NCBI GenBank assembly: GCA_950097015.1
Contig: CATNEN010000007.1
Span: forward strand, 10,416,001-10,480,000
Reading direction: 5' to 3'
Length of the DNA stretch: 64,000 nt
Source of the DNA: Macrostomum hystrix
Lineage: Eukaryota > Animalia > Platyhelminthes
Shown: piece by piece, positions 5,953 through 28,610 of the stretch
Position numbering within the stretch: the first letter of the stretch is position 1
Layout of the letters: each line of letters opens with the position of its first letter
Made by a program: the position numbers and the translations under genes
The notes under the pieces: model-generated
What the model was told of the DNA's origin: nothing
Database searches by the model: none
What the model saw: the letters and a program-made list of their open reading frames with translations, nothing else

Positions 5953-8900
5953 ATGTCTGATTGGCTGGTACCTGCGGCTGCAGTTGGAGCCTCCGCCACT
6001 AGCCCGCTGCTGCCCACCACCACCTTCGGCGTCAGCGGCATCAGCACTAGCGGCCTTGGCGCTGGCATTGTCGACCATCTGGACGTCATCAATGGCGGCG
6101 GTGATGGCTGCCTTCTGATGGACAACGTTGGCATCGCCGACGAGCCGGAGGTCCTCGGCCTGGAGGCAGCTGCTCTGCCGGCCTCGGAGGCCTCGGAGAA
6201 TCAGTGCCTGCTCAGCGAAGACCTCTATAGGCTGTCAAGCGTGCGCCGCACCTGGAAGAAAGAGAGCCTGGAGCTCTGGGCGTTAAAAGACGACGCCGGC
6301 TACGTGTTGGAGAGCCGCGGCGGCTCCTTCAGTCGGCAGTTTCAGCGGGCTCAGGTGCGCCGCTTTCTGTTTAAATGTGGTTGGCCGCACTCTTTGGCAG
6401 GTAGATTGATACAATATGACTTTCTACTCTTAGCAGTACTGTCACTAAAATTCATCTTTTTACTGAAGGTTCGCGCCTGGGTCGAGCTGACGGGAAGCGG
6501 TACCGGCGCCGGTGTCAGTTTGACCATCCCAGCCGGTCGGCTAAAAGACCGCCTGGTGTTCGGTGTGCGCTTCATCTCCGACTCCGCGGCCGACACTGGG
6601 CTGGAACTCCCGTCGCCAAGCCCCGGCGGCGCGAAATGGCAGCGATTCAGAGCGGTGTCGGTGCACCAGATGTACCGCTGGATGCTGGTGCTGCGGCGGC
6701 TGTTTCCTGATCCGGCCTGCCCCGAGCCGCGGCCTGGCCTGGACTTTGTTTCCCATGGCAACGAGGTTTGTACTGCGTGGCTGTGTACTCAAGTCGGCTC
6801 GGCTCAAAGACAGCGTTTTAAGCTTAGAAGAAGAAGTGGAACAGTGATACCCGCGATGCCGACTTGGCCAATTTCGCCGGTCATTATTTGGCTGTTGGCT
6901 TCGGCTCTCTTCCAGATAGGCTTCCGCCTGGCTAACGCCAAATGCTTCATCTCTCTAGCGCTGTGTTTGGGCTGCCTGTCTTCCTCAAGTGCCGCCGGGG
7001 TCACCCGCTTCTTGTTTTCCCTCGCTGCCAAGAGGCGCCGGTCGGGGTCGGACATTACCAAAACACGCCCCAGGCAGAAAAATCCTTCAGTGTCTGCCAC
7101 GCCCACCGTGCCAAAAGTAATACTCGTAATTTATTACCTGCGCCCAGGTGCACCGGGTGGCTGGAGGCCTAATTAAAAAATATGTTACTGTCTTGGCAGC
7201 CAAGGAGACATGACAGTCATAAATAAGCGGTTGGTCCACATTCTCGAGCACGGGATCACCAAGGTTTTAATTTTAACTGTCAGGTGACCACGAATAAAGG
7301 GGAGCTGTAGGAGGCAGCTGTACTAGGGGAGATAGATGGAGGCAGCTGTACTAGGGGAGATAGATGGAGGAAGCTGTAGGAGGCAGCTGTACTAGGGGAG
7401 ATGGTTGGAGGCAGCTGTAGGAGGCAGCTGTACTAGGGGAGATGGATGGAGGCAGCTGTACTAGGGGAGATGGATGGAGGCAGCTGTACTAGGGGAGATG
7501 GATGGAGGCAGCTGTACTAGGGGAGATCGATGGAGGCAGCTGTACTAGGGGAGATGGATGGAGGCAGCTGTACTAGGGGAGATGGATGGAGGCAGCTGTA
7601 CTAGGGGAGATGGATGGAGGCAGCTGTACTAGGGGAGATGGATGGAGGCAGCTGTACTAGGGGAGATGGATGGAGGCAGCTGTACTAGGGGAGATGGATG
7701 GAGGCAGCTGTACTAGGGGAGATGGATGGAGGCAGCTGTACTAGGGGAGATGGATGGAGGCAGCTGTACTAGGGGAGATGGATGGAGGCAGCTGTACTAG
7801 GGGAGATGGATGGAGGCAGCTGTACTAGGGGAGATGGATGGAGGCAGCTGTACTAGGGGAGATGGTTGGAGGCAGCTGTACTAGGGGAGATGGATGGAGG
7901 CAGCTGTACTAGGGGAGATGGATGGAGGCAGCTGTACTAGGGGAGATGGTTGGAGGCAGCTGTACTAGGGGAGATGGTTGGAGGCAGCTGTACTAGGGGA
8001 GATGGTTGGAGGCAGCTGTACTAGGGGAGATGGTTGGAGGCAGCTGTACTAGGGGAGATGGATGGAGGCAGCTGTACTAGGGGAGATCGATGGAGGCAGC
8101 TGTACTAGGGGAGATGGATGGAGGCAGCTGTACTAGGGGAGATGGTTGGAGGCAGCTGTACTAGGGGAGATGGATGGAGGCAGCTGTAGGAGGCAGCTGT
8201 ACTAGGGGAGATGGATGGAGGCAGCTGTACTAGGGGAGATCGATGGAGGCAGCTGTAGGAGGGAGCTGTACTAGGGGAGATGGTTGGAGGCAGCTGTACT
8301 AGGGGAGATGGTTGGAGGCAGCTGTACTAGGGGAGATGGTTGGAGGCAGCTGTACTAGGGGAGATGGATGGAGGCAGCTGTACTAGGGGAGATGGTTGGA
8401 GGCAGCTGTACTAGGGGAGATGGATGGAGGCAGCTGTAGGAGGCAGCTGTACTAGGGGAGATGGATGGAGGCAGCTGTACTAGGGGAGATCGATGGAGGC
8501 AGCTGTACTAGGGGAGATGGATGGAGGCAGCTGTACTAGGGGAGATGGATGGAGGCAGCTGTACTAGGGGAGATGGATGGAGGCAGCTGTACTAGGGGAG
8601 ATGGATGGAGGCAGCTGTACTAGGGGAGATGGATGGAGGCAGCTGTACTAGGGGAGATGGATGGAGGCAGCTGTACTAGGGGAGATGGATGGAGGCAGCT
8701 GTACTAGGGGAGATGGATGGAGGCAGCTGTACTAGGGGAGATGGATGGAGGCAGCTGTACTAGGGGAGATCGATGGAGGCAGCTGTACTAGGGGAGATGG
8801 ATGGAGGCAGCTGTACTAGGGGAGATGGATGGAGGCAGCTGTACTAGGGGAGATCGATGGAGGCAGCTGTACTAGGGGAGATGGATGGAGGCAGCTGTAC

Positions 8901-11900
8901 TAGGGGAGATGGATGGAGGCAGCTGTACTAGGGGAGATGGTTGGAGGCAGCTGTAGGAGGGAGCTGTACTAGGGGAGATGGATGGAGGCAGCTGTACTAG
9001 GGGAGATGGTTGGAGGCAGCTGTACTAGGGGAGATGGTTGGAGGCAGCTGTACTAGGGGAGATGGATGGAGGCAGCTGTACTAGGGGAGATGGATGGAGG
9101 CAGCTGTACTAGGGGAGATGGTTGGAGGCAGCTGTACTAGGGGAGATGGTTGGAGGCAGCTGTAGGAGGGAGCTGTACTAGGGGAGATGGATGGAGGAAG
9201 CTGCAGGAGGCAGCTGTACTAGGGGAGATCGATGGAGGCAGCTGTACTAGGGGAGATGGATGGAGGCAGCTGTACTAGGGGAGATGGATGGAGGCAGCTG
9301 TACTAGGGGAGATGGTTGGAGGCAGCTGTACTAGGGGAGATGGTTGGAGGCAGCTGTACTAGGGGAGATGGTTGGAGGCAGCTGTAGGAGGGAGCTGTAC
9401 TAGGGGAGATGGATGGAGGCAGCTGTACTAGGGGAGATGGTTGGAGGCAGCTGTACTAGGGGAGATGGTTGGAGGCAGCTGTAGGAGGGAGCTGTACTAG
9501 GGGAGATGGATGGAGGAAGCTGCAGGAGGCAGCTGTACTAGGGGAGATGGATGGAGGCAGCTGTAGGAGGGAGCTGTACTAGGGAAGAGGGTAACTGAGG
9601 GGGAATCTCAGCCTTGTAAGAAGTACTCAAGCCAGCCCATCACTATTCTCAGTGCCCCTGAGTTGATCTGAACTCGCCGCCAATTTGCGCAGGAGTTCCA
9701 GGGCCGCTGGGACAAGTGCCACCCCAGCATGCTGGACGCGCAGCTGTCCCACGAAGCTGCGGCGGCGCACGGCGGCGAGTCTCGCAGCCCGGACGCCGGC
9801 CAGCCCGCTGCCCGGCATCAGCAGGGCCAGCAGCCACCGCCCAGCTATGAGGCCATCATGACCCAGATGAAGTCCTGCCAGGTGCCAGCTGTGGTGAGTG
9901 GAGATTGTACACGGACTTTGGATTCCAACTCCGGTCCTTGTTGCCCGAGCTGCTTCTTCGGTCACTGCGTCACGTGACCGCTTGAGGCTTTCTAGAATAA
10001 ACAGTCTGAAATCTCAAGCGCATGATGGCGTACTGTAGGATGCTTCACGGAGTTTCGCTACTGGCTTTGTAGCTCGGCCGTCCTCTCCGCTTCCGTCTCC
10101 TCTGCTTGCTTATCTGCGCCCTGCTGTCTGGCCTGAGACCCAAGCGGTTATTTCTCTATTTTAACTGCGAGCCTTGTAAATCGCAGATTTTAGCAAAGCT
10201 AATTTATAGCGAACTCATTCTTGGACCTCTCCCAGCCTCACTAGTATCCGCGTGCTTCTGAATTATGCAGTTTTGCCTCGGTGCAAACATGCTTTCTTTG
10301 TGCTGCTTGTGCCATTTCGTATTCATAATTTGCTCGGTGCGAGATCCCAGTTGTACTTTTATGCCTGACTGCCAGCCCTAAGTCAGCTGGGCTGGTGAAT
10401 TGTTCTGCAACCGATCCGTGGGGGTGGGGGTTCTGTGGAGACAGTCCCAGATAGGCCTTTGTTAATCTATGAACAGCGGCTCATGCTGCTAATTAGCTTC
10501 TGTTTCTATTGTTTCTGCAGTTGGCCAGAGAGAAGTTGGGCCCAAGAGATTTGCGCCTACTAATCTAACTGGCCTACGATGTACTTTTAAGATAAGCAAG
10601 TGTGGAAATCCAAGATTCGTGCGAGATTAATTGGCATTAAATAGCTAGCGTCTGACCGGAGAGTGCGTTGAGTGCGTCTGACAGGATGAGCACATAGTAG
10701 ATGGTGTCTGTCAGGATGAGCCCACAGTAGAGAGTGTCTGACAGGATGAGCACACAGTAGAGAGTGTCTGACAGGATGAGCACACAGTAGAGAGTGTCTG
10801 ACAGGATGAGCACACAGTAGAGAGTGTCTGACAGGATGAGCACACAGTAGAGAGTGTCTGACAGGATGAGCACACAGTAGAGAGTGTCTGACAGGATGAG
10901 CACACAGTAGAGAGTGTCTGACAAAATGAGTACACAGTAGAGTGTCTGACAGGATGAGCACACAGTTGTGTGTGTATGATGAGCACACAGTTGAGTGTGT
11001 ATGATGAGCACACAGTCGAGTGTGTATGATGAGCACACAGTCGAGTGTGTATGATGAGCACACAGTCGAGTGTGTATGATGAGCACACAGTCGAGTGTGT
11101 ATGATGAGCACACAGTCGAGTGTGTATGATGAGCACACAGTCGAGTGTGTATGATGAGCACACAGTTGAGTGTGTATGATGAGCACACAGTCGAGTGTGT
11201 ATGATGAGCACACAGTCGAGTGTGTATGATGAGCACACCACTGTATACTTACCAAACGCTCCTCACTGCTCCCTTGCCCGCCAGTTCCGGCAGCAGGAGC
11301 ACACGCCGCCTCCTCTGCAGGCTGTTGGAGCCGACGGAGCCTCTGCGCAATGCCGTAGGCGCCGTCGTCAGGAAGACGACACCTTCCTGCCGCCGCACGG
11401 CCCACCGGTGCGGTGGCCGCTGAACCTCGGCCAGGGCGAGGAGTTCGGCCTGCCAGAGCACGTGCAGCACCTTTGGGATTTCAACCTCGACCGGGCCGTG
11501 TTCGTCGACCACGTCAACAAAACGGTGTTCTACGAAGATCCTCGCGGCGTGGACCGGAACGCGGCCAGCGATCAGCTGCAGCAGCCGTGCCAGCAGCCAA
11601 CCAAGTACATCATCTACCGGGAGCCGGAGGGCCGGCAGAGCTCCACAGCTGATATTCTGCTGTCGCCGGAGAATCTCAACGTTTTGGAGGCCGAGAAGAT
11701 GGCCGAGGCCGCCAGGTCTAAGGTACGGGCGGCCATACGAGCTATTATGGTTGAGCCGGAGTGGAAAAGTGCTGCCATATTCTCATTGATAAAACGAGAT
11801 TTGGGTGAGGGTCAAGTTTAGATTTAGTATCTCACTGTTCTCAAGATTAGGGTGAGGCTCTCATTGTTCTTAAGGTCAGGGTGAGGCATCACTATTCTCA

Positions 11901-14900
11901 AGATCAGGTGAGAATCTCATCATTCTCAAGGTCAGGGTGGGGCTCTCACCATTCTCAAGGTCAGGTGAGAATCTCACCATTCTCAAGGTCAGGTGAGAAT
12001 CTCACCATTCTCAAGGTCAGGGTGAGGCTCTCACCATTCTCAAGGTCAGGTGAGGCTCTCACCATTCTCAAGGTCAGGTGAGAATCTCATCATTCTCAAG
12101 GTCAGGGTGGGGCTCTCACCATTCTCAAGGTCAGGTGAGAATCTCACCATTCTCAAGGTCAGGTGAGAATCTCATCATTCTCAAGGTCAGGGTGGGGCTC
12201 TCACCATTCTCAAGGTCAGGTGAGAATCTCACCATTCTCAAGGTCAGGTGAGGCTCTCACCATTCTCAAGGTCAGGTGAGAATCTCACCATTATCAAGGT
12301 CAGGTGAGGCTCTCACCATTCTCAAGGTCAGGTGAGAATCTCACCATTCTCAAGGTCAGGTGAGGCTCTCACCATTCTCAAGGTCAGGTGAGAATCTCAC
12401 CATTATCAAGGTCAGGGTGGGGCTCTCACCATTCTCAAGGTCAGGTGAGAATCTCACCATTCTCAAGGTCAGGTGAGAATCTCACCATTCTCAAGGTCAG
12501 GGTGAGGCTCTCACCATTCTCAAGGTCAGGTGAGGCTCTCACCATTCTCAAGGTCAGGTGAGAATCTCATCATTCTCAAGGTCAGGGTGGGGCTCTCACC
12601 ATTCTCAAGGTCAGGTGAGAATCTCACCATTCTCAAGGTCAGGTGAGAATCTCATCATTCTCAAGGTCAGGGTGGGGCTCTCACCATTCTCAAGGTCAGG
12701 TGAGAATCTCACCATTCTCAAGGTCAGGTGAGGCTCTCACCATTCTCAAGGTCAGGTGAGAATCTCACCATTATCAAGGTCAGGTGAGGCTCTCACCATT
12801 CTCAAGGTCAGGTGAGAATCTCACCATTCTCAAGGTCAGGTGAGGCTCTCACCATTCTCAAGGTCAGGTGAGAATCTCACCATTATCAAGGTCAGGGTGG
12901 GGCTCTCACCATTCTCAAGATCAGGTGAGAATCTCATCATTCTCAAGGTCAGGGTGGGGCTCTCACCATTCTCAAGGTCAGGTGAGAATCTCACCATTCT
13001 CAAGGTCAGGTGAGGCTCTCACCATTCTCAAGGTCAGGTGAGAATCTCACCATTATCAAGGTCAGGTGAGGCTCTCACCATTCTCAAGGTCAGGTGAGAA
13101 TCTCACCATTCTCAAGGTCAGGTGAGAATCTCACCATTATCAAGGTCAGGGTGGGGCTCTCACCATTCTCAAGGTCAGGTGAGAATCTCACCATTCTCAA
13201 GGTCAGGTGAGAATCTCACCATTCTCAAGGTCAGGGTGAGGCTCTCACCATTCTCCAATAGACTTGGATCTGTCTATTGGCTATTGGAAAGCCAGGCAAG
13301 CCACAGCCCTCAGATCTCTGCTGATTGCTAGTCAAAAAGTACTAGGCTAAGCTGGCTTCTGCTTGCTCTGTTTAAAGCAATTGTCCCTGTTTGCCCGGTG
13401 GAAGGTTAACAGTGTCCGAGGCTTTGCTAGTGCGGAGAATGCGGGAACAGCTGGCTTGGCCAAGGCACAAACTGCCAGTGACCTGCTAGCCATGTAAGCC
13501 GTGGGAACTCGTGGGAGGCACTGGTGCTTGGGGGCTGCCAAGCGTGAAGGATCTGTCCCAGGCCGCTGTGGACCGAATCCAGTTCCGCACTCAACTCAGG
13601 GCGCGAATGAGACAGAGAGAGCGCCGAAGGATGGGATGTGGCACAGTTTCTCCGGCGCAGAAATTTCCCAAGTTTCCTTTCGCTTTGAGTAAAGTTTTCG
13701 GATTGCTCTTCGGTCTCCAGAATCAGGTTCAGTTTGGCTGGCGGCTGTGGAGCCACTGAAATGGGAGAAAGTTTTGAGGATTTGTACTTATACTGTCCGT
13801 TTGGCTGGAGTTTTACTGGCCCCATTGATTAGGCTGGCCAGACACCACCAGGTGCATCGCGACCTTCTGTTTCCTCTCCTCCTTCATCTTGCATGCTGTA
13901 TACTAGAAACTGGTTACCCTTCTCTACCTTTTCTGCGAAATGGGAGAGCGCATCTTAAAGATGGGATATTTATCACCGCAGTTCATTTTCTGCCTGGCCA
14001 TCTACCTGAGCAGTGTCTCATCCTTTAATGTGTGTTTTGGAGGCCTGGGATAGGGCGGAAGCACGGTGGGCCTAGAGCCCAAGCAAAGTTGGCTCGATTC
14101 TCTGTTCTATTTTTAGCTTCAGTGCGCGGCCAGCGTGCGCGTGCACTATTTGGCGGGGATCAGGCCACCGGCCCAGCTGCGCATGCTGCCTGCACTGCAT
14201 GAGATAAAATATACTCAGTGCGCTTCCGCATCAAGCAGAAAATCTGATAGTGCAAAATAGGGCATTTTCCTAATCCTTCGTGATTTCTCATTAAAAATCT
14301 CATATGCGCTTGAGTACACTTGAGTACGACTACCGACTGCTTTATTTGCCTACTCAGAATCCGTAGGTTATGACCATTGAGAATACGTAGGTTATGACCA
14401 TTGAGAATACGTAGGTTATGACCATTGAGAATACGTAGGTTATGACCATTGAGAATACGTAGGTTATGACCATTGAGAATACGTAGGTTATGACCATTGA
14501 GAATACGTAGGTTATGACCATTGAGAATACGTAGGTTATGACCATTGAGAATACGTAGGTTATGACCATTGAGAATACGTAGGTTATGACCATTGAGAAT
14601 CTGTTGGGTATGACCATTGAGAATCTGTTGGGTATGACTATTGAGAATCCGTAGGTTATGACCATTGAGAATCTGTTGGGTATGACCATTGAGAATCTGT
14701 TGGGTATGACCATTGAGAATCTGTTGGGTATGACCATTGAGAATCTGTTGGGTATGACCATTGAGAATCTGTTGGGTATGACCATTGAGAATCTGTTGGG
14801 TATGACCATTGAGAATCTGTTGGGTATGACCATTGAGAATCTGTAGGTTATGACCATTGAGAATCCGTAGGTTATGACCATTGAGAATCTGTAGGTTATG

Positions 14901-16517
14901 AACATTGAGAATCTGTAGGTTATGACCATTGAGAATCTGTAGGGTATGACCATTGAGAATCTGTAGGTTATGACCATTGAGAATCTGTAGGTTATGACCA
15001 TAGAGGTTATGACTGATAATATTGCATTTTCAAAGCGTTTTCAAAAGTGCCTTCTTCGCCTGCCTGCAGCCGCAGCTCATTGTCATCTCGTCTTGCGGCC
15101 TCAACGGAGTCGACGGACTGAAGGGCGAGGACGGCCGGGACGGCCACCCTGGCGAGGAGGGCATGCCGGCCTGTGTCGGTGAGTCTCATGTGTACTGCTC
15201 ATGTGAGTCCGTGAGCAGACCTGCATTGAAATGATTCTCCCCCCGGTGCTTTGAAATGATTCTTCCTCCGGTGCATTAAAATGATTCTCCCCCGGTGCAT
15301 TGAAATGATTCTCCCTCAGTGCATTGAAATGATTCTCCCCCGGTGCATTGAAATGATTCTCCCCCGGTGCATTGAAATGATTCTCCCCCGGTGCATTGAA
15401 ATGATTCTCCCCCGGTGCATTGAAATGATTCTCCCCCGGTGCATTGAAATGATTCTCCCCCGGTGCATTGAAATGATTCTCCCCCGGTGCATTAAAATGA
15501 TTCTCCCCCGGTGCATTGAAATGATTCTCCCCCGGTGCATTGAAATACTAATTAGTAATTTGATTTGTACTTCTGTTTATCCTTTGAATCTATTGGGCTC
15601 GGCTGACCGTAATGAGAAGACTGCGGCAATAAATAAATGCAATGATGCTTTGGGATGAGCCGAGCTCACAGATTTATCCCCTGGGATAGAAGTAGATTTT
15701 GCATTCGGAATAGATAAGGCCCGAGCCGCTATGGCCAGTTTTTATTAATGAATGGCGTGGATTAAAAATGGGGAAAAGGGAAGTGGCGGGAGGCGCCGGT
15801 GACTGACGGGCGCGGCCCGCTGACCTCCCGGGAGCTCCGAGCTGAGCTCTCGCCTCGGGGACCGCATAAAAATTTACAGCCCAAGCATTCAGTGACCGGG
15901 AGATAGATGGGGAGCCGCTAGGCCAGAATTCAACACTTCCCCGGGGCATTGCGACATTCTTCCTCCTGCCGTTCATTCGGTCAGTGCAGCCGGGATCCGC
16001 GATTTGGGAGGCTGGGATTGAGGCGGGCGTCAGAAGGAGCCACTTGGCTCGAGCACTTTCGCCCAGGCCAGGCCGCGGATTCCGAGTGCCCTCGTCGTTT
16101 CGTACTGGCTGCTCCGCCACTGCTGGCTGCGGGGTGGCTGCTCTGCGCACTTTTGTCTCTCCCATTCACAATGACGGGCGTTGGACATGGCATGGGCGGG
16201 CGGAGAGGCTCAGGCGCCAGCTTCGAGTCCGCCTATCCGCAGCTCGCTCAGCTCTGTCTGCCCTTGGCTTGGCTCAGCCAGGGCTCCGGGCTATCGATTG
16301 TAGACAACACGCGAGGAGGAGGCAATTTCGTCTACTCCCTCCATCTCTCATATTGGATTATCAGCCCCAGTTCCCAAGGCAGAATTCCCACGGGAGAGCA
16401 GACCAAAAAATAACTGATAAAGAAAGACCTGCCCAGCTTCACCGTTGATTTGTCCATAAATTCCTCACTGGAGGCCCCTTGCCCAATTTGCAATTTCATC
16501 ACTTCTGTAACTTTGTG

Positions 16518-16554
<37 letters not shown>

Positions 16555-19500
16555 TCTTCTCCACCATTGGCACCTCTTTGTTGTTTGCCGCCTTGATTAC
16601 ACACACACACATGCGCCCAATGTCCTGGGAGGGGCGGGTGGCTTGGCAGGCGGGCAGGTGTGAATTTCCTGGCATTTATCTCTACCAATCGGCTTATTTG
16701 ATGCGCATTTGTGCCACAATGTCTTCTCCTTTACCGCTGCCGCCTTGCTTCATTCTCAAGTCCGTTGCGCTCCCCACTCGCTGATCCCCACTTCCAGTCC
16801 CGGCATGCGCCTCGTTTCCCTTCGCGATCGCTGAGCTGCCGCCATCCATCAGTGCCGCCGCTGCTGCTGCTGAATTATTAATTTACTGCGCCTCTGTTTC
16901 CATCCCCCCTAGCGGGGCAGCCTAACTCGGGAATGCGAGGCGGCTGGCGAAGTCCTCGGTAACTTTCGCCCCCTTGAACTCCGGATGATACGAGTAATCC
17001 GCCCCCAGCAGGCACTCGATAGCAATGTTGTTGTGCTTATCTTTCTCCAACTTGACAACAATAGGCTTTACCAACTGGGGTGATTTCCCCAATTTTCCAT
17101 TGGGGAAGCGATTTGCCAAATGTGGGAATAATTTTACTGCTAAGGATGATATACCGATTGCGGTGAGAGGTTAGCCAACTTGAGGGATAATTTGGCAACT
17201 GGGGGGGGGTAATTCGGGGATTCGGGTATAATTTGCCAGCCTAGGGATAATTAGGCCAATTCGGGGATAATTTGCCAGCCTAGGGATAATTAGGCCAATT
17301 CGGGGATAATTTGCCAGCCAAAGGATCATTTCGCAACTGTAGGGATAATTTGCCAGCCTAGGGATAATTAGGCCAATTCGGGGATAATTTGCCAACCTGG
17401 GATAATTTCGCAACTGTAGGGATAATTTGCCAATCGCAGGGATAATTTTCCAACTGTTGTGATAATTTTATTACTGGAGCAATACTTTCCCAACTGAAGA
17501 GATAATTTGCCAATCAGGGGATAATTTGCCAACTGGAAGGATTAAGTAGCCTATAGAGAGGGGGTCAGTCGATTGTCTGTTAGATCTCACTTCTCTAATT
17601 CAGCTCATTTTTTTTAAATAATAACAGCTGGCGGTCGGGGCGAGGACGGCGGTCGTGGCGGCGATGGCGGCCGCGGCCTCAGTGGTGAAGACGGCGAGGC
17701 GGGCGAAGACGGGCACTCGTTTCACCTGCTGCTGTCCGGCAACCCGGCCTCGCTGCGCGTGTCTGGCGGCGGCCTGGAGGAGGACTGCGTGGACATGGGC
17801 CGCGAGGCCATCATCTTCGCCGACTTGCACGGCGGTCGGGGCGGCCGCGGCGGCGCTGGTGGCCACGGCGGACACGGCGGTCGCGGCGGTGGCGGCGGCC
17901 CCGGCGGACGCGGCGAAGAGAGCCGCTCCGGCGAAGGCGGCCGCGGCGGCGACGGCGGGTGCGGTGGCAACGGCGGAACGGTGAGCTGCTGTTTTATAGA
18001 GGCTCAGAGAATATTGCCTCGGAGCCAAGGGTGCCCGCAGCCAATTCACGGGTTCAGGGTGAGTCAGAAGGTCACGAGGACCTCGAACCGGCATAGCAAT
18101 GGTTCACAGTTCAGTTCAGTTTAGGGCTAGGTACTTTCAAGCTTTGCACCGCAGCAGCCAAAGCAGCCTCCTCAATTCCTGCGCTAACCTCAGAAAGAAT
18201 GCGAGCTATGCGGTCGCGGTGTGCTCTTTGTTCGTGCAGCCCGACTGAGGGGATCCCTTTGCGCTGAGTCACAGCGGAGCCTGACCCGCGCAGTAACTGA
18301 TGAGGCAATTATTATAAAAACACGGCTTGTCTTGCAATGGGAGAGAGATTAAGGTGGAGGGCGTGGTGGGCCGGCCAGTGATGGGTCGCGGTCATGTGTT
18401 ATTGTTGATTCAGATTATTGGCCGAACTGGCGGCAACCCACCAGAGTTCCATTGAATGATGTAGTCTAAGTTGCTACTTTTTTTCATTATCAGGCTACTG
18501 CCGGATAGTAGCGCGCTTTGATTCTTGACGTTTTTCATCTACGAACGTTGAAACTGCTGCCAAGGCAAAATTCCTGCGTAATCGGGTCGCAATTCTAATT
18601 TGCTTTCAGATCTAAAGTATGCAAAATGCTAAGGCTGACGATTCTAAGTAAACCAGAGGAGTAAACGGCGGGAGTAACCATAGCTTTATTTTCTTATTAA
18701 AATACTTCGTCATCTAATTTGTTGCGTGACGGCATTGATAGTGCGCTGGACGCAGTCCTCACAGATATCCCTAACTCCAGAGCTTACTCACAATAGGCGA
18801 CTGGCATAGAAGGATGCAAGCTGTGAATAAATGAAGCCGCAGGGGCAGCTGGAGATGGGTGGGGGAGACACAGGGCTTGAAGTCGATTGTCCTAGTCTAA
18901 GCTTTCACCATTGCCTGGACTAGTCCAAATGCCTAAATACTGCGGCCATTATGCTCTACAACAATGTAAATACTCCGTTCTGGGATATTTTGCCCACTGG
19001 CACTTGGGCATATCCCAGTGGATTTGCGCTCTGAGGTCTGGGGGAGAAAGCAGCGGCCCTTGTCAGGCGAAACACTAAACTGCCCCGAGTCCTGGCGCCC
19101 CCCCCAAGTGCTGTTCGTCAGTGGCAGATGGAGCTGGAAAAATGGCAGTCCGAGAGGAAATCGAACCTCTGTTTAGGAGGCGGGGAGCGTCTTCACAGCC
19201 CGCCACCGCCCCTGTTTTCTCCGCATGGGCTGATGATCCATGCCTGAACACCAGCCCGCCTCTCCGTCTCCGCATATCCCAACGAGTTTTCGCCGTCGGT
19301 GCACATCCCGCATCTTTATCCCCTCTGGCCTCGCAGTTTCCCTCTCTCTGCCCCAAGTGGGTGGCGCTGGAATGCCCCGACTGCCCCTGCCTGCCAGCTG
19401 CCTCTCTGGCTCGCCTTCGCTTCATCCGAGCCTGTCGCTCGATATTTCAGCCGCTGAGCCCCCGCCCTGCTGTCCCCCCCAATGGCAAGCGGTTTTACCT

Positions 19501-20206
19501 GGTTCATGCAGCGGCTTCGGAGTGCCGGCTCCAGCGCGCTGCCCCCGCTTATTGCGGCTGTCGGGTGCGTGTGGGGATTGGGGAGGGTTCCTGCACTCTC
19601 TGTCCCGTCCAGCGGCGCACCCCGCGCCCAAACCTCGGCAATTTATTGCAGGGCGCATTTCGTGCGCCAGCCCCAGCCCCGTCTCCACTTTTCTGTTTGG
19701 CCGCCAGGGGTTACTGCGGGGTATCTCCGGACCGGCGGAAATCGGCATCACAGCTTTATCGCTAACGGCGCAATGGCCACCAAGCTGCACCCGCAGTTTC
19801 AGCAGCATCACCAGCAGGCGCATCCACATCATCAGCACGACAAGACGGACAGCAACGTGGCCTCCTTCGGCGGCACCGTAACCACCACTGTGTCGGCCGC
19901 CGAGGGCTCCGGTCTGCGCTCCGTCGAGAAGAGCGCCGTGCTGACCGAGCAGCTCGGCAACCACCATCACCAGCAGCACCAGCTCCTGCTGCTCAGCGCC
20001 GGATCCGACGCCGCCTCCGGCGCCAGCAGCGGTGGCACCGGGGATTCCGGCAGCGTCGACGACGACGCCCTGTCTGCCGCCTCTGTCAGCAGCGGCGTCT
20101 CCACAGACTCGGCGGAGGTTCTCGAGCAGCGGCTTCTGCTTCAACGACAGCAGCTTCTGCTACAACAGCAGCAGCAACTCCAGCAACAGCTACTGCAGCA
20201 GCAACT

Positions 20207-20237
<31 letters not shown>

Positions 20238-21348
20238 AAGGAGCGGTTCGCCAGTCTGCTCACGGTTGAGCGGGGCCCGGAGACGTGGACGAGCCACGCT
20301 CACGTGACCTACCGATACCGCAGCGATAGACTTTACTACCTAGACAGCGCGAGCCGCCTACACGGCCCAATGGACCAGCGCGAGCTGTGCCAGGTGGCCT
20401 CTGTGCGCCGCCATGTCACTCGCGGCGGCAGCTTCAGCCAGCCGCCCGTGGCCACGCGCAGCCACCAGCGTACCTTGCACACCGTCCAAACTGCAGTCGC
20501 ACCACCAGCAGTCAACTCGAGCGGCTACGTCAGCAGCACCGGCGGAATCGGTGGTCTCGGCGCCCTGGACGATGGCATTTTGCTGCTGGAACGGCGCTTT
20601 ACCAGCAGCTCGCACAGCCAGCATCAGCAGCAGCAGCAGCCGCATCCGCTGCCTTATTCCCGAGTGCAAGTGAACCGCTACGATGACTTAGGCTCCGGGC
20701 CGGCGCCGATGCCGCGCTCCTATAGCCAGCAGCTGGACTATGGCGTCCACCGTCGTCAGCGCAGCCATCGCGAGCCCCAGCACCATGCCCAGCACCGCCA
20801 CCACCAGGAACAGCAGCATCAGCTGCAGTTCCGCGGCCGGCAGCACAGCAACCCGGGATTCGATGCGCGCCTCGAGCACCTGGAGCGGTCGCTTAAGGAC
20901 GCCATGGAGTCCATCCGGCGCCAGACGACCACCCAGAAGCGCCAGTCGCATCATCGGGCGCAGCCACAGAACGAGCAGCATCTGTACATCAGCAGCGAGC
21001 AGCAGGGCTCGGCGGAGATGAGCCGCCGCTTCAGCTCTGAGCCGCCGTTTGAGTTTCGGTACAGCCAGCGGACCATGACGCACGAGCCGCCGCAGGTAAC
21101 GGAGGAGGTCGAGACCACCACCCTCCAGCCCATCGGGCGTGGCATTCACGACCTGGGCAGCGGCACGCGGATTGTTGCCCCACAGATGCAGCAGCAGTTC
21201 AGCCTCACTGAGCAGCGGGGCACCGTCGGCCGGGTCAGCCGCCTGTCGGTCCGCCCGGGCCCGGCCGAGGCTGCCGCTCGCAGCCTCAGCGCCAACCGGA
21301 CCGCCACGCTTCGGGCCTCGACGCCCGTGTCGCCAAAGCCGCTGACCC

Positions 21349-21394
<46 letters not shown>

Positions 21395-24300
21395 CGGCTT
21401 TTCCAGGGGTCGCCACCAGTCGGCGAACACGCAGCAGCAGGAGTTCACCCAGGTGTACTGACTGACCTGAGCATCAACTGAGCAGATCGCTTTGGCTGAT
21501 AATCTGCCAGAGATGTCTGCCAGCCGGGCAATAGTTGCAATAGTTTAGTCCTGTTCAGACTGCAGACCGGCACTGATTTGCTTGCACAAATATAAGTATA
21601 TATAAATGCATAAACATTGTGCGCTTATACGCTGCCTGCCTAGCCGTGTGTTAACTTTAAAACAATTTTTATATTCTACTAATCGAAGCACAGCTGCTCC
21701 GTACTGGACATTTACGGTTCTACTTAGGTGTAACACTATTGCCATTTTGCCTACTGGCACCTCCCGCTCCGACCTGACTGCTGTTAGTTGCAATCTGGAA
21801 AACGAATAGACCATTTTAAATAATGTTAATTATAGCTGCCTACCTGTTGCACCTGCCTCGCCGCTTAGTGTGTTCTTTTTTTAAATAAAAATAAACAATA
21901 TAAATCAGCTCTGCTAGCGCCTGAAAACACAGCGATGAATGAAGGCCAACTGTGCTCACGCCTCACGCCTCCTGGGGGATCTTCTCTCTGGGTAATGATA
22001 ATAATGATAATAAAAATAATAATGCCAACTTCGCTGACTCCTGAGCACAGACGCACACAGGTGTGCACATCTGCCCTGACTTTCTCATCGTCAGGCAGTG
22101 TACACTTTCACTGTGCCTTGAAGGTTGGCCCTCTAGGGCGTAAATCCCAAGCCTTCTCTTCGCGGCTGCGCCCTAACTGAATGTGGCCCCACCGCAACTG
22201 CAGGGTGGCTCCGGCGGTTGCGGCGGCCGCGGCGGCTGCGGCGGCAACGGCGGTCGCCTGCTCATTACGGCAGACAATCCCTGCCTGCTCATGCTGGTGG
22301 AGGCCGACCTTCGCGGTGGCGACTCCGGCGCCGGTGGCGACCTCGGCCCGCCCGGCTCCGGCGGAATCGCCGGCGTTGGCGGCCGGCCCGGGTTTGGCGG
22401 CGGCGGAGGCGGCGTTGCTGGCCTCGGCGGCCGGGCGGATTCGGACGCCGATCTCGGCGGAGGCGGCGGTCGCCTGCGGCACGGCTGCCCCGGCTCGGCC
22501 GGCGTGCGCGGCCAGCCCGGCAAGGCGGGGTCGCCGGGCCTGCAGGGACAGGCCGGCCAGGCGGGCAAGCCGGGCTACGTGATCTGGTCCGTGATCGACC
22601 CGTCCACCGGGGAGGTCACCTGCCGGACCCAGCGTCGCTACGACGTGGTCGTTGAGCACTATGACGTGGCTTCGCTGTCGCAGGACCCGGAGTTCTTCTT
22701 CCCCAGCGCTCAGGTGGTGGTCACCAATGTCCGGCTGCGCAACCGAGGCGGCATGGCCCTGCCCTGCGGCGCCGTGCTGAGCTTCGCCTCCACTGACAAC
22801 TTGGCTATGCGCCGCTCCGAGACTTTCGTGCTGCCCAAGGTGAGCGAATGGGGTACACTGGGAGACTGGTAGTAGGAGTGAGCTGGGACGGAGTGTGGGT
22901 CAGAGGGTGGGTCATTGGGGTATGGGTCAGAGGGTGGGTCAGTGAGTGGGTGGGTCAGAGGGTGGGTCAGTGGGGTATGGGTCAGAGGGTCAGTGAGGGG
23001 TTTGTCAGAGGGCAGAACACTGGCCGCAGGTCAATAGCTATGAGGAGCCCGGGTGCGGCTATCTGAGTCTGAGAAAAGCCGGTAGCAGAATTGGGGCATA
23101 GCGCATTCAATGATGTGCATTCATGTTTAATTATTGTTTGCCGGACTCAGCTGCACTCTCATGCAGCAGGCCATTATCTGGGCCTGGATAACCGGCTTCT
23201 GCGCATGCGACTTTGGGGCACAGTCCTGTCCTGCGCACTTGGACTTTGGCCGCCTAACTGTGTCTAGCTTATTCTTGAATTTTATTTTTGGTGCAGCAGT
23301 AAGAAAAAAATACATTTTGTCCGGAGCTTCTGGCTCCGCTCACATTGTGCAGAGAAAACTGCCAGCCCAGTTTGTAGCTGAGTGTAGTTTGACTTGAGCC
23401 TAATTCTCCTGCTTGCATGCTTCAGGCTGTGGTTTTCGTGTCTATGATCCCAGTCTATGAGCTTATCGATGACAGCGGCTGAAGATTAGGGGAGTCTTAC
23501 GTTTTCTTAAGCATTTATCATTTCGGCTTCATGGCTGCTGGATATTTTCCAGCGTCTAAATCTGGCCACTTTCAACACCCCGACATTTTTTCTCAACCTC
23601 ATGCTTCTGACACCCTGACATTCCAAATCTAGCAACTTCTGACACCCTGACATTCCAAATCTAGCAACTTCTGACACCCTGACATTCCAAATCTAGCAAC
23701 TTCTGACACCCTGACATTCCAAATCTAGCAACTTCTGACACCTGACATTCCAAATCTAGCAACTTCTGACACCTGACATTCCAAATCTAGCAACTTCTGA
23801 CACCTGACATTCCAAATCTAGCAACTTCTGACACCCTGACATTCCAAATCTAGCAACTTCTTTCACACGACATTCCAAATCTAGCAACTTCTGACACACG
23901 ACATTCCAAATCTAGCAACTTCTGACACCCGATGCTCCGTCTCAACCCTAAGCTACAGACGTTACCCCCACCACCCGCAGCTGGAGCCCAACGAGCTGTA
24001 CACGGTGAACGCTCTGTTCCACGGCCGCCTGGCCGATGTGCCGACCCCAAACGAGCCGGTTCGGTACGAGGGCGAAGCTGAGATCCGGCCCACCGTCAGC
24101 CTGGTTGGCAGGCAATTCACAGGCGTGAGTGCTACCTGGCTTCACTGCTCGAATGCCTGGCAATTGTCCCTGCTCACCCAACCCTCCCCCCTACTCCAGG
24201 TGGGCTGCTCGCGCAAAGTCCGCATCCGGCACCCGGTCATCCTGTCCTCTGTCGGCCTGCCACCGCAGATGGGCCGGGGCGAGCAGTACTGCGTCAACAT

Positions 24301-26638
24301 TGATGTGCGTTTTGCTTTTTGACATATTTGAATATTGAATATTCTATGATATTAAGACCATGACGTCGTAACATTTAAGGTCAAAGTTTCTAACAAAAAC
24401 ACTCAAAGTTGACGGTATTTGGTCTATCCTCGCCGCAGGTCACCAACCAGTCGGCTTTCAACTTTGTTGCGCCCGGCCAGCAGGCGCCCGCCGTCGAGGA
24501 TTCCTCGGGCCCGTCCTGCGAGGTTGAGCTGCGGATCCGCCTGGACCGGCGCATGCTGGTGGCCGCCGAACCGTCCGGCACTGGCGGCGGCGACCTCGGC
24601 GATCCCGGATACTTGCTGAAGTTCCACCCGGATCTCAAGGACACGGTTTACGTTGGTGTGCGCAACCTGCGGGCCAAGTCCACCCTGACTGTGCGCTTTC
24701 CCATGCTGCTGGAGGACAAGGCGGAGCTGTTCGACCACGTGCTCTGCCAGGTTGAGCTGTACATGGTGAGTGAGGATGTTAGCTGGACAGTTCTCCCCCA
24801 ATTAACACGAGGCACAATATCCCTATTATCCCAATGTGCTCGCAGCACGGCAAGCTAGTGGAGTACTGCTCCAGCACGGTGCGTGTGGCTCCCTACTTCG
24901 TTGTCCGAGACCCGCCTGGAGACGCCCTGTTCGTCACCGGCCGCGGCACCACCCGCACCAGCTTCCTGCAGTGGCAGTGCCTCCTTGAGACCCTCCACCT
25001 GGATGTGGACTTCTGGGACACGGAGCGCTACGAGGGGTTCAGCTTCTTCCGCGACACCGGCCTGCGACACGAGGTGACCTGGGTTGACCGCTACGGCGAC
25101 CGCCTGCTCATTGTGCCCGACTACCGGCCCGAGCTGGTCTGCGGCCTCGACCTGGCCCGCCACTTCACACTGGCCGCCCGCCTCGGCGACTCGGCCGCCC
25201 TCCTCATCGCCGGAGACCGCGCCCCGCTGGCCCGCCTGGTGGCTTCCCTGGCTGCCGAGCCCGCCAGGCCGCGGCTGCCGTACGGCTCCTCCCGTCGGCT
25301 GCTGCACCCCCTCAGCTGCGTCGGCGCCGACCGTGAGGACGCCGTCCGCGACAAGCGAATCCGACGCATCCTGCGCGACCTCAACGACCGGCCCGTCTCC
25401 GCCCCGGCCGCCGCTTCCTCCACCACCGCGTCCGGCTCCGCGGTGTCGGCCGCTGCGGTTCTGTACCGTCGGCAGGACGCCGAAATCCGTCGTGTCGGCT
25501 GCTGCCGCTGGAGCTACGGCGAGGCCGAGTTCCGCCGGCTCGGCCTGCCCCGCGAGGCTCGCCTGGCCTACCTGGAGCTGCCGGACGGCGAGCCGCTCGA
25601 GTGCTGTCCGGCCGCCGCCTCGGTGCCCCTTGCCTCGCCCTGGGCTCAGGTATGAGAAACTGTGCAATCTGCGCCCACCTGTGTGCTTAGGGAAGTCAGC
25701 GACATGTGCCATGGCTTCCCGCCTTGTCTCAAGTGCAGTCTGTGAACAGCCGCTCCCTCCCCCTGACCTCCAGCTCTACCTGATCTGCCTGTCACTGCTG
25801 CCTAGCGGCTCCAGGCGCAAGCTCTACAACCTCAGGCCGCGAAGGACTCCGGCTGCTGATTCGGCAGACGTGGCTGGCGGCTGCGCTGGTGAGACTCGCA
25901 ACGGCACCGACGGTGACGATGGCGGCGTTTTGTTTGCGCTGCCCTGGGGCGAGACTCTGGAGCTGCCGCTGCTGGCCGCCATGTCCGTGCAAGCCTACCT
26001 CAGCGACGAGATCGGCGACTCGATGCGGGTCAGTGCGGCCTGTCTGTACCAGTCTGTCTGTACCAGTCTGTCTGTACCAGTCTGTCTGTACCAGCCTGTC
26101 TGTACCAGTCTTACTATTAAAGTTTATTTATCCAGCCTGGCTGTTTTGGCCAGTTCCTATGCCAGGTAGCAGCACTGGCTGCCAGCCGTGTCTGTCAGTG
26201 CAGCTGGTGCCTCCTGTGAAACCCGCGCTCAGACTGTTTTTAACTGATTCGGGTACAACAGATGGCCTAGCCCGCACTCGGGCAATCAATCGTTGGGTGA
26301 TCTTTGCCAAACTTTCCCGCCGAGCCTGGCAGGTCCGGGGTGCACTTTTGTCACCTTAAGAAACACCTCGTGTCACTGTCCTGTCACTCTTTCCCTGGCG
26401 TCGTGCTGGCATTCAGCCGCAATTCTAGTTGGCCTTGGTCTGCAAAATTTCGCCAGCCTTTTTTCTCGAATTTCTGCTGCAGTTAATAAAATAGCTGGCA
26501 GCAGTATCTCAGCCCACTGCCCGCCACCTCCTGGTGAATCAGCAGCCGTTGATTCACCAGGGCGCCCTCCGCATCCAAATTTGGACTCGATTGCAGCCAG
26601 TTGGAATGGGCAAATCAGCAAATTGGCGCAATAAGCGC

Positions 26639-26669
<31 letters not shown>

Positions 26670-26682
26670 ACTGCTGCTGCTG

Positions 26683-26723
<41 letters not shown>

Positions 26724-26762
26724 ACTGCTGCTACTGCTACTGCTGCTACTGCTGCTGCTGCT

Positions 26763-26802
<40 letters not shown>

Positions 26803-26803
26803 C

Positions 26804-26834
<31 letters not shown>

Positions 26835-26944
26835 ACTGCTGGTGCTGGTGCTGCTGCTGCTGCTACTGCTGCTACTGCTGGTGCTGGTGCTGCTGCTGCT
26901 GCTACTGCTGCTGCTGCTGCTGCTACTGCTGCTACTGCTGCTAC

Positions 26945-26975
<31 letters not shown>

Positions 26976-27132
26976 ACTGCTGGTGCTGGTGCTGCTGCTG
27001 CTACTGCTGCTGCTGCTACTGCTGCTGCTACTGCTGCTACTACTGGTGCTGGTGCTGCTGCTGCTACTGCTGCTGCTGCTACTGCTGCTGCTACTGCTGC
27101 TGCTACTGCTGCTGCTGCTGGTGCTGCTGCTG

Positions 27133-27221
<89 letters not shown>

Positions 27222-28610
27222 ACTGCTACTGCCACAGTTTTCCCAAACTTCCCTGGGCTCTTCCCTGCTCTGGGCAGCTCTGGGCCGGCACTGGGCAGAT
27301 ACTGTCTTACTGCCATGGACTACGCCCGTTCCCTCCCCGCCATCTCCCCTTCGCTTGTTCCTGGGTTTCCATATTTAAGTCGACTGACCTGCTGTCCTGT
27401 GGGATACTGTTATAATTGCAGTCACAGTTTCTCCACTGGCGGTGGGATACGATCGGGGGGATTAATTTCCCTGTCCCTTAAAAATGTTTTCTTCAGTACC
27501 CGTTCGCCGGCCTACCATGGGCATTAGTTTCCTAGCTTTAGGTTTCGATGGGCGAATCGTTCTATCTGTTTTGCAATGAATCGGCTTCTAAATTGCCTTG
27601 ACTGCATTTATGACTGATTTTTGCACTTCAAGTGGTCCTGTGAGACCCACTGTCAGTTCAACCCATGCTTTATGCAGGGGCCTCGAAATATCTTTTGATG
27701 GGTCCAATCAGTTCTTCTGGTATTTGAAAAAGCTGTATGTGGGTTGCAGTGCGACTGCAGTCTGTGGGTTGCAGTGTGACTGCAGTCTGTGGGTTGCAGT
27801 GTGACTGCAGTCTGTGGGTTGCAGTGTGACTGCAGTCTGTGGGTTGCAGTGTGACTGCAGTCTGTGGGTTGCAGTGTGACTGCAGTCTGTGGGCTGCAGT
27901 GTGACTACAGTCTGTCTAACATTGGCCTAACATTCGAAATGCCTACCCGGCATTCCAGGACTGTCCGAAGCTGAAGTCGCTGTGCTCAGACGTGGCCAGC
28001 CACCCGGCCAGCTACATTCGCAGCCCGGCGGTGTCGCTGAGGATTCTATTCTACCTGCGCGACTACCGCAGGCAGGCGATGCGATTCGCGCCCAAGTCAA
28101 TTCGGCCAACTGTCCGGCGAGTGGTGGCTGAGGCGCTACTGGCCATGAGGAAGGAGATGGTAAGCCGTCTCTCGCCTTCACCGTCTCCCGTCTCCATCTC
28201 TCGCCTTCCACGTCTGTCGCCTTCCCGGTTTCTCGGCTTCCCGGTTTCTCGCCTTCCCCGTCTGTCGCCTTCCCCGTCTCTCGCCTTCCACGTCTGTCGC
28301 CTTCCCCGTCTGTCGCCTACCTCCCGTATCTCGTCTTCTAACGTAATTGTTAACCCCCATCCACTCCCTGCCTGCCTGCCCGCCCCTAATTCAGGGCAGT
28401 CGCGAGTTCCGTCGCCGCGGCCACCGCAGCCGTCAGGAGCTGGCCTCGCCGGCCGCGCTGCACTTCGCCGACCTGTTGGACGCCAGCGGCGTCGCCCGGC
28501 CGGCCCGGCCTCGGCCGGACAGCGAGCTGGCCAGGCTGAGCGACCTGCTGCAGGAGCCAGACTACCAGCTGCTGGACCTCATGGCCCACCTGGCCAGCCA
28601 GCCATTCTAG
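5953..28610 (+). CDS. Uncharacterised ~1495-aa protein: PH-like, PPxY, WW-like, collagen/PGRS-like Gly-rich and probable DUF7932-like regions. Exons 5953-6354, 6469-6765, 9693-9893, 11285-11722, 15070-15178, 17628-17980, 22204-22839, 23981-24124, 24200-24304, 24439-24765, 24846-25649, 25774-26028, 27959-28159, 28395-28610
   Basis: 14 GT-AG-bounded exons join into one open frame (4488 nt, TAG at 28610). PH-like signature RRTWKK...RFRAVSVHQMYRWMLVLRRL; PPPSY; LPE...FVDHVNKTVFYEDPR; GGxGGxGG tracts; RYDVVVEHYDV...VVVTNVRLRNRGGMALP and ALFVTG...FLQWQCLLETLHLDVDFWD resemble recalled fungal DUF7932 proteins. Joining exons 1-4 to the rest is inferred from phase only. Confidence 0.75.
7300..9585. repeat. 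28-bp G-rich minisatellite (GGAGGCAGCTGTACTAGGGGAGATGG[A/T]T), ~2.3 kb
   Basis: Direct 28-bp periodicity with occasional 13-bp sub-duplications; in intron 2 of the + gene. Confidence 0.97.
10670..11238. repeat. Composite minisatellite: 30-bp units (to ~10965) then 25-bp units, sharing ATGAGCACACAGT
   Basis: Direct periodicity; ends ~46 bp before the acceptor at 11284. Confidence 0.95.
11830..13255. repeat. 28/29-bp minisatellite (CTCACCATTCTCAAGGTCAGGTGAGAAT) with a 480-bp higher-order duplication
   Basis: 11941-12420 is repeated at 12421-12900. Confidence 0.96.
14356..15012. repeat. 24-bp minisatellite (GACCATTGAGAATACGTAGGTTAT and variants)
   Basis: Direct periodicity, with variant units grouped in blocks. 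Confidence 0.96.
15225..15545. repeat. 24-bp minisatellite (TGAAATGATTCTCCCCCGGTGCAT)
   Basis: Direct periodicity; begins ~46 bp after the donor at 15179. Confidence 0.96.
17170..17535. repeat. Degenerate ~19-20-bp minisatellite (GGGATAATTTGCCA core)
   Basis: Recurrent GGGATAATT motif, partly as 39-bp dimers. Confidence 0.88.
19773..21461 (+). CDS. Q/H/S/G-rich low-complexity 562-aa ORF inside intron 6 of the host gene (nested gene or alternative exon)
   Basis: 1.98-kb open frame (19482-21461) with exon-like GC-rich codons. ATG at 19773 (MATKLHPQ), acceptor TTTTCTGTTTGGCCGCCAG ending at 19707, AT-rich 3' region with AATAAA at 21884 and 21890. Confidence 0.7.
21990..22192 (-). mobile_element. 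5'-truncated SINE copy with an (ATT)n-like tail
   Basis: The reverse complement aligns by eye with 58505-58672 (shared AAGGCACAGTGAAAGTGTACACTGCCTGACGAT, TGTGCTCAGGAGTCAGCG and TTAGGGCGCAGCCGCG). Confidence 0.8.
22880..23012. repeat. Degenerate G-rich repeat (GGGTCAGAGGGTG)
   Basis: Recurrent GGGTCA motif just after the donor at 22840. Confidence 0.75.
23605..23930. repeat. 31/32-bp minisatellite (TTCTGACACCCTGACATTCCAAATCTAGCAAC)
   Basis: Direct periodicity, ~10 copies. Confidence 0.95.
26040..26110. repeat. 14-bp minisatellite (TGTCTGTACCAGTC)
   Basis: Five copies starting ~11 bp after the donor at 26029. Confidence 0.9.
26637..27232. repeat. Interrupted (CTG)n trinucleotide tract, ~200 triplets
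   Basis: CTG runs interrupted by CTA and GTG triplets; in intron 12. Confidence 0.97.
27738..27915. repeat. 25-bp minisatellite (GTGGGTTGCAGTGTGACTGCAGTCT)
   Basis: About 7 copies, ending ~43 bp before the acceptor at 27958. Confidence 0.95.
28165..28325. repeat. Degenerate 16-bp repeat (TCGCCTTCCCCGTCTG)
   Basis: Recurrent TCGCCTTC motif directly after the donor at 28160. Confidence 0.85.

Follow-up and report, generated by a model that had tools for sequence, protein, structure and literature searches.

Introduction

About six natural protein types are listed as carrying glycine-rich polyproline-II bundles, the snow-flea antifreeze protein (2pne), the N-terminal domain of the Obg GTPase, ALK/LTK, the phage S16 adhesin and acetophenone carboxylase among them (PMC12227593, 10.1101/2023.11.25.568672). 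The DUF7932 family, which might have to be added to that list, is known as a Pfam entry (PF25560) but is uncharacterised: neither DUF7932 and PF25560 nor four gene identifiers are mentioned in the searchable literature (supplements and subscription papers lying outside that scope), and no published account of the family was found via polyproline-II/glycine-rich or sponge/pleckstrin topics (titles, in the latter case). Here, we describe a DUF7932-family gene of the flatworm Macrostomum hystrix, found in a 64,000-nucleotide stretch of its genome (“the window”; assembly GCA_950097015.1, contig CATNEN010000007.1, positions 10,416,001 to 10,480,000, forward strand), whose N-terminal PH-WW head joined to a DUF7932 body, judged from sequence comparison, defines an animal subfamily that is not peculiar to M. 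hystrix. It is this subfamily, together with its presence in a tractable bilaterian, that is newly recognised.

Gene structure and transcript support

The locus is a single spliced gene for a DUF7932-family protein, and its identity and domain layout can be regarded as almost certain. As an earlier note made from the letters of this stretch had proposed, 14 exons give one frame of about 1,495 amino acids (aa): joined by script, they amount to 4,488 bases encoding exactly 1,495 aa, with a single terminal stop and GT..AG boundaries at 13/13 introns. The features, in window positions and with the evidence for each, are:

5717..5952, + strand: 5' untranslated region, starting at a TTTCAG acceptor (end of a 976-nt contig record, by arithmetic)
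5953..6354, + strand: exon 1, coding, aa 1-134, low-complexity extension and first PH-like strands (homolog PH alignment)
6469..6765, + strand: exon 2, aa 135-233, remaining PH-like domain with C-terminal helix (loose ends, 2/4 runs)
9693..9893, + strand: exon 3, aa 234-300, with PPPSY (aa 281-285) at 9834-9848 (exon model; spliced contigs)
11285..11722, + strand: exon 4, aa 301-446, degenerate WW (~11438-11548) preceded by a conserved segment (PDB matches; contigs)
15070..15178, + strand: exon 5, aa 447-483, opening strand and Gly-X-X run 1 of the predicted polyproline-II bundle (contigs)
17628..17980, + strand: exon 6, aa 483-600, glycine runs 2-4 with the strands that link them (start by loose ends, 4/4 runs)
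22204..22839, + strand: exon 7, aa 601-812, glycine runs 4-6, then the N-terminal half of DUF7932 (Ig-like domain 1) (Pfam; contigs)
23981..24124, + strand: exon 8, aa 813-860, second half of DUF7932 (record arithmetic; homolog alignment)
24200..24304, + strand: exon 9, aa 861-895, end of DUF7932 and start of Ig-like domain 2 (record arithmetic; homolog alignment)
24439..24765, + strand: exon 10, aa 896-1004, Ig-like domain 2 (contigs run on into exon 11)
24846..25649, + strand: exon 11, aa 1005-1272, alpha/beta domain holding the conserved W-D, followed by an alpha+beta domain (93 cluster-representative matches; homolog model)
25774..26028, + strand: exon 12, aa 1273-1357 (contig cover 25771-26027)
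27959..28159, + strand: exon 13, aa 1358-1424, C-terminal helical bundle (record arithmetic)
28395..28610, + strand: exon 14, aa 1425-1495, to the TAG stop (contig cover from 28394)

The transcript evidence consists of the contigs of four runs from one study (the kind of run is not on record), which were used as such because they cover exons and skip introns, so that their joins show splicing; a wider table of joints, dominated by GC-rich repeat artefacts, was not used. The exon 4-5 junction (11722/15070) is present as a GT..AG joint in 4/4 runs, which speaks against exons 1-4 and 5-14 being separate genes, the outcome that the earlier note had named as fatal to its model. Exons 3 and 4 are joined in 3/4 runs, and a 795-base record leads from exon 3 to exon 5 and into exon 6. 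Upstream of exon 3, 2/4 runs show loose ends that match the final bases of exon 2; downstream of exon 5, 4/4 show loose ends that match the opening 30 bases of exon 6. A 1,669-base record spans exons 7 to 11, with 251 bases that equal 2+144+105, the exact need for exons 8-9, and the contiguity of exons 10 and 11 is present in two records. For exons 1-2 (where the surrounding stretch is repeat-rich), 7-8-9-10 and 12-13-14, the support is exact record-length arithmetic only; the length of the 976-base record is that of exons 1-2 with a leader of 237 bases from the TTTCAG acceptor at 5716. As a transcript contig seems to begin at this acceptor, upstream of the ATG, and spliced-leader trans-splicing has been reported in the genus (PMC8629364), positions 5716-5717 may be a spliced-leader trans-splice site.

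No joined contig was seen in the four runs for exons 6-7 and 11-12, so that, of the two junctions proposed for checking, exon 4-5 was confirmed and exon 6-7 was never seen joined. That unseen junction, a transcribed same-strand open reading frame (ORF) nested inside intron 6, and the automatic Macrostomum lignano model P0002, which joins the nested ORF to exon 7, would all suit a reading with two genes (exons 1-6 and 7-14), or one with exons 1-6 spliced into the nested ORF. Such a reading is, however, extremely improbable: the Lineus and sponge homologs are single collinear chains, coverage of the nested transcript begins 5' of an ATG of its own and extends to AATAAA signals that also belong to it, and the 6-7 junction lies inside an 11-triplet glycine run (aa 584-617) that continues across it in register and gap-free relative to the homologs.

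Family membership and distribution

Exon 7 alone scores 25.7 bits against PF25560 (gathering cut-off 27, profile positions 4-66 of 130), the domain being split over exons 7-9. Among the homologs scanned (long cluster representatives), 30/30 match PF25560, and collinear homology to the 29 that do so above the cut-off bears out the DUF7932-like body proposed in the earlier note; aa 697-1125 align to DUF7932 homologs with E-values down to 1e-70. With exon 11 as query, phmmer found 93 cluster representatives, two of which (P0038 and P0087) were rejected as low-complexity false positives, and a profile search gave 105 further rows. The nearest proteins are frameshifted M. lignano fragments (91% over 38% of exon 11), whose UniRef names, “protein kinase domain-containing”, were rejected, as they have no Pfam domain on record.

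The named members that have the N-terminal head come from Lineus longissimus (two paralogs, LOC135493433 and LOC135501411, the latter XP_064649595.1), Oopsacas minuta (KAI6661803.1) and Amphimedon queenslandica (“collagen alpha-1(XXVII) chain-like”); Ephydatia muelleri contributes a partial record of the same clade (EMCRGX_G020158), and dozens of unnamed proteins group with the named sponge sequences. The named relatives, uncharacterised or misnamed database entries, are collinear in their PH-like domain, Tyr motif, WW-like segment, six glycine runs, DUF7932, second Ig-like domain and long tail, with Lineus and Amphimedon showing ~30-34% identity to the Macrostomum protein over 870-1,260 aa; the latter stands apart by an 80-aa N-terminal extension of its own, by having PPPSY in full and by its long terminal branch. 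Of 58 clade rows, 46 N-termini (those left once short rows and a single row with a long insert had been removed) went into an animal-clade profile built without the window protein; this profile matches aa 189-453 of that protein at an E-value of 5e-36, and the head-plus-body layout is therefore old and not a local fusion. The claim that the architecture matches no named animal gene thus holds in that no characterised animal gene, and no full-length match to a characterised family, was found, but not in that the layout recurs in Lineus, Oopsacas and Amphimedon.

Outside animals, named members were found in Paradermamoeba levis, Mastigamoeba balamuthi, Vannella, Willaertia magna, Percolomonas, Dictyostelium citrinum and a giant virus (Terrestrivirus A0A3G4ZNF8), as well as at 17 loci in metagenome-assembled genomes (L003-L019), 15 of them titled as Myxococcota-type taxa. 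They have the glycine-bundle, DUF7932, Ig-like and alpha/beta core in common with the animal proteins and add FYVE, SAM, SPRY, C2/SH3/WWE, an internal PH or no module, whereas the WW-like segment is confined to the animal clade in the alignments viewed. The proteins of the Myxococcota-type genomes (Kofleriaceae, Polyangiaceae) are full-length at ~1,030-1,075 aa, have no signal peptide evident by eye, and are closest to the Dictyostelium protein. No conserved operon surrounds them in the 15 loci parsed of the 17; Ser/Thr-kinase-type ORFs neighbour 9/15, and an M3 peptidase lies upstream in 4.

This patchy distribution (scattered animals, protists and Myxococcota) had been anticipated, and the earlier note's pointer to fungi found no support: no named vertebrate, arthropod, nematode, cnidarian or fungal match was retrieved among rows that are mostly unnamed (30 clusters were looked up), and the nearest non-animal relatives are protist. 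PF25560 was found in 0/15 genomes (E. coli and 14 controls), a count that is not informative on absence, and three viral-contig scans gave no relative.

Descent

All animal sequences that have names fall into one clade (100/99) in two trees, a quick one of 91 core sequences and an IQ-TREE LG+G4 one restricted to 35 of these, from which most sponge-clade rows were omitted; within this clade, the Lineus pair is the sister group of Macrostomum (99/94). The nearest non-animal relatives of this clade are protist proteins, the Dictyostelium/myxobacterial subfamily being a distant branch. The approximately unbiased (AU) test rejects a grouping of Macrostomum with Paradermamoeba and P0028, both protist-type members (p 0.018), and fails to reject one with Dictyostelium and the myxobacteria (p 0.051; long branches, LG+G4 only). 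The phylogeny, which had been suggested as a means of separating gene loss from horizontal transfer, thus favours the former: the simplest reading is that the gene was inherited from an early animal ancestor and lost in many lineages, with horizontal transfer into Macrostomum appearing disfavoured and an old transfer into the animal stem being a less simple possibility.

The predicted glycine-rich bundle

The ~250-aa GGxGG-rich region described in the earlier note is indeed there, although it is better seen as a predicted folded structure than as a linker. It holds six glycine runs of 7-11 triplets, with conserved beta strands between them, and in the homolog model several Gly-X-X and Gly-Gly-X runs pack within one chain, as in a bundle; the region is accordingly predicted to be a rigid polyproline-II bundle of six helices that a small beta core holds together. 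Like the known glycine-rich bundles, it would have Gly-X-X helices at its edges and Gly-Gly-X helices in its core, and the number of six helices recurs in Obg and the short antifreeze protein, whereas the DUF7932 helices (7-12 triplets) are about twice as long by aligned length as those of 2pne, and the bundle is set in a large multidomain, probably cytosolic protein; the likeness is one of pattern, not demonstrated homology. A 46-residue strand-helix-strand connector aligns to E. coli ObgE at 17.2 bits, a score reached by 0/298 plain and 1/300 Gly-fixed shuffles; Pfam GTP1_OBG gave no match, and Obg is absent among the best 50 structure-search rows, lists that are filled by Ig-like matches and are uninformative on both Obg and ALK.

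That the Gly-X-Y runs instead make this a collagen-like, trimerising protein is suggested by a weak Pfam Collagen match in exon 5 (22.1 bits, cut-off 27.2) and in many homologs, and by the collagen-like name under which the Amphimedon record is filed; the PDB sequences matched by a profile of the body were mostly collagens, through glycine bias. We consider this very improbable, as the longest run has 11 triplets and the central runs are Gly-Gly-X, conserved beta strands split the runs, Pro makes up only 13/300 residues in aa 451-750, hydropathy reveals no signal peptide, and the single chain of the homolog model folds confidently as a bundle.

The C-terminal body

Beyond the bundle, two Ig-like sandwiches, an alpha/beta domain (alternating strands and helices) and a helical tail are predicted on models of the homologs; the structure-search check proposed for the C-terminus, run on those models, gave Foldseek lists filled by Ig-like matches and uninformative on the last 400 residues. 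The invariant residues of the body are mostly structural among the 28 members compared.

Should the body be an enzyme or ligand sensor, the alpha/beta domain, in its resemblance to class I glutamine-amidotransferase-like modules of bacterial proteins, would handle the substrate, and PH, WW and FYVE would only place it. Class I glutamine amidotransferases combine a flavodoxin-like alpha/beta fold with a Cys nucleophile and a His-Glu pair, whereas the alpha/beta domain here has no conserved Cys or Ser nucleophile, no Cys column being conserved at 80% among the 28 members. The retention of bare core proteins in bacteria and protists, the near-invariance of W1061-D1062, G1068 and H1110 from myxobacteria to animals, and language-model look-alikes (GATase1_like, LBP_M and DMFA2_C at 0.84-0.90, leads only) favour such a role; still, the C-terminal profile gave three matches against the PDB, all with E-values of 0.6 or more, NCBIfam enzyme matches number 0/11 proteins, and we regard an enzyme or sensor as unlikely.

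Proposed function

The reading that we prefer, with a probability of roughly 0.45, is that of a cytosolic scaffold without enzymatic activity, which would sit on anionic membranes and offer its PPxY motif to a WW ligase or to the protein's own WW. Its PH-like head would recruit the protein to an anionic membrane (plasma membrane, phagosome or endosome, the latter two being likelier), the membrane contact probably being made via basic loop residues and not a canonical 3-phosphoinositide pocket; the protein would lie in the cytosol, at the inner face of cell membranes, and its predicted rigid polyproline-II rod and two Ig-like domains might present docking surfaces, under the regulation of the PPxY/Tyr motif, bound by a Nedd4-type WW ligase in trans or by the protein's own degenerate WW in cis.

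The membrane recruitment suspected earlier is plausible via the PH-like head, and the PH-like, PPPSY and WW-like modules of the earlier note are present, albeit with a PH and a WW that lack signature residues and a PPxY that is conserved mainly as its Tyr. On the window sequence, the PH call is weak (7.3 bits, the best of 1000 shuffles reaching 4.9), so that the assignment rests mainly on the homolog fold, predicted as a seven-stranded sandwich with a C-terminal helix; the domain carries a basic loop. The Tyr of PPPSY is kept in 43/46 animal-clade homologs and the full [LP]PxY in 15/46. All 32 PDB sequence matches of the WW-like stretch are WW proteins (best E-value 5e-4), three strands form a WW sheet at 246-268 of the homolog P0006 model (predicted local distance difference test, pLDDT, 76-91), and the D and the H of the segment are each kept in 44/46 homologs. 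With the group I WW/PPxY proteins (Nedd4 family, KIBRA, MAGI), the protein has in common D-H, D-P-R and a PPPSY followed by an acidic-hydrophobic tail. A crude hydropathy scan revealed no signal peptide or transmembrane segment. Elsewhere in the family, FYVE, PH, C2 or SH3 domains occur in seven of the non-animal clusters in the trees, others and the bacterial proteins having none, and because these modules vary in kind and position between branches, eukaryotes would seem to have repeatedly tethered a soluble core to membranes. A PH inserted after the alpha/beta domain also occurs in two distant branches (P0217 910-1006, P0075 808-911), separate from the animal N-terminal PH.

Several observations weigh against this scaffold. 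The phosphoinositide-specific PH signature is K-Xn-(K/R)-X-R in strands 1-2, and the window protein has W-K-K-E, with Glu at the canonical beta-2 Arg, W-K-K-R being kept by Amphimedon only among eight homolog records in which the start of the PH is complete (five distinct clusters, isoforms counted in addition). The Tyr-motif segment has a pLDDT below 50 in the homolog model. In WW domains, a Tyr pocket is distinguished from a proline groove, the latter tied to the Trp pair; unlike in the group I domains, both signature Trp are replaced here (Val, Tyr), Trp is not among the six commonest residues at the first position (43/46 rows), the second is found in only 2/46 homologs, and Pfam WW gives no match at an E-value of 1 or below in the window exons and none in the homologs scanned. 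As D-H is conserved and the Trp pair gone, the Tyr pocket seems kept and the proline groove weakened; a complex prediction of the WW and PPPSY segments, made without alignments, reached 0.24 against a mark of 0.34 and speaks neither for nor against their contact. No targeting module was detected in the myxobacterial proteins or in at least six non-animal members of full length (Willaertia, Vannella, two Percolomonas, P0060 and P0065), from which it follows that the core works without one. Asp1062 (28/28 members) and His1110 (26/28) leave an enzymatic role possible, the folds of the last 400 residues are homolog-predicted and barely tested, and the mechanism as a whole is drawn from sequence and from homolog structures, not from the structure of this protein itself.

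Another use of the same parts, which we find doubtful, would be in the cell-autonomous defence or the prey handling of phagotrophs and predators, with a bundle that would grip a foreign surface and a helical tail that would be the effector. The glycine domains of the S16 phage adhesin and ALK bind partners, offering a model for such binding; FYVE domains point to endosomes or phagosomes, a giant-virus member exists, divergent paralogs are many in the sponge-containing clade, and the named carriers are sponges, amoebae, heteroloboseans, Dictyostelium, Myxococcota (17 loci) and two worms. This carrier range is, however, drawn from few named rows, PADLOC matches number 0/7 proteins, and the myxobacterial neighbours vary without a conserved operon. 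Quite unlikely as a whole, though arguably the most far-reaching, would be DUF7932 as an undescribed cross-kingdom class of polyproline-II bundles, maybe sharing a module with Obg, at the phagosome/endosome membranes of microbe-eating or microbe-fighting cells, the animal version having a PH and a self-latching Tyr-WW switch, expanded in sponges, kept in few spiralians and lost elsewhere.

Significance

If the bundle reading is true, DUF7932 adds a widespread cytosolic type to the approximately six known glycine-rich polyproline-II bundle proteins, from proteins that are currently misfiled as collagen-like. The animal subfamily would be a seemingly ancestral animal gene, overlooked since the common model animals gave no named match. 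As transgenesis exists in Macrostomum (PMC5730564), the function is directly testable there, and, if the more novel reading is true, Macrostomum would be the first genetically tractable animal for testing it.

Surroundings of the gene

The nested single-exon ORF of intron 6 (19773-21461, + strand) encodes 562 aa rich in Gln, Ser, Gly and His, with what is possibly a PDZ-type tail at its C-terminus; it has no Pfam match, is covered by contigs from ~19646 to 21954, and is followed by AATAAA at 21884 and 21890. Because it matches the front of the M. lignano model P0002 (64% identity over 165 aa), the nesting seems common to both Macrostomum species. An intronic segment at ~22066-22107 has very high contig depth in 4/4 runs and is likely an abundant repeat or RNA piece. 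Introns 2, 3, 4, 5, 7 and 12 hold large minisatellite and CTG-type arrays:

7300-9590, 10670-11240, 11830-13255, 14360-15000, 15230-15545, 23600-23930 and 26635-27230: minisatellite/CTG-type arrays

Rfam gave only two matches, both sub-threshold and on the CAG repeat. The neighbours of the DUF7932 gene are ordinary animal genes: head-to-head upstream, across an AT-rich 2-kb gap, lies the gene for Exo84, an exocyst component (~850-3560, - strand), and downstream are a 618-aa stop-to-stop ORF without a Pfam match (49613-51469, + strand), a split homeobox gene (~53005-57850, + strand; the homeodomain fragment spans 57472-57849) and an ORF for a G-protein beta subunit, intron-free over its WD40 part (61916-63550, - strand).

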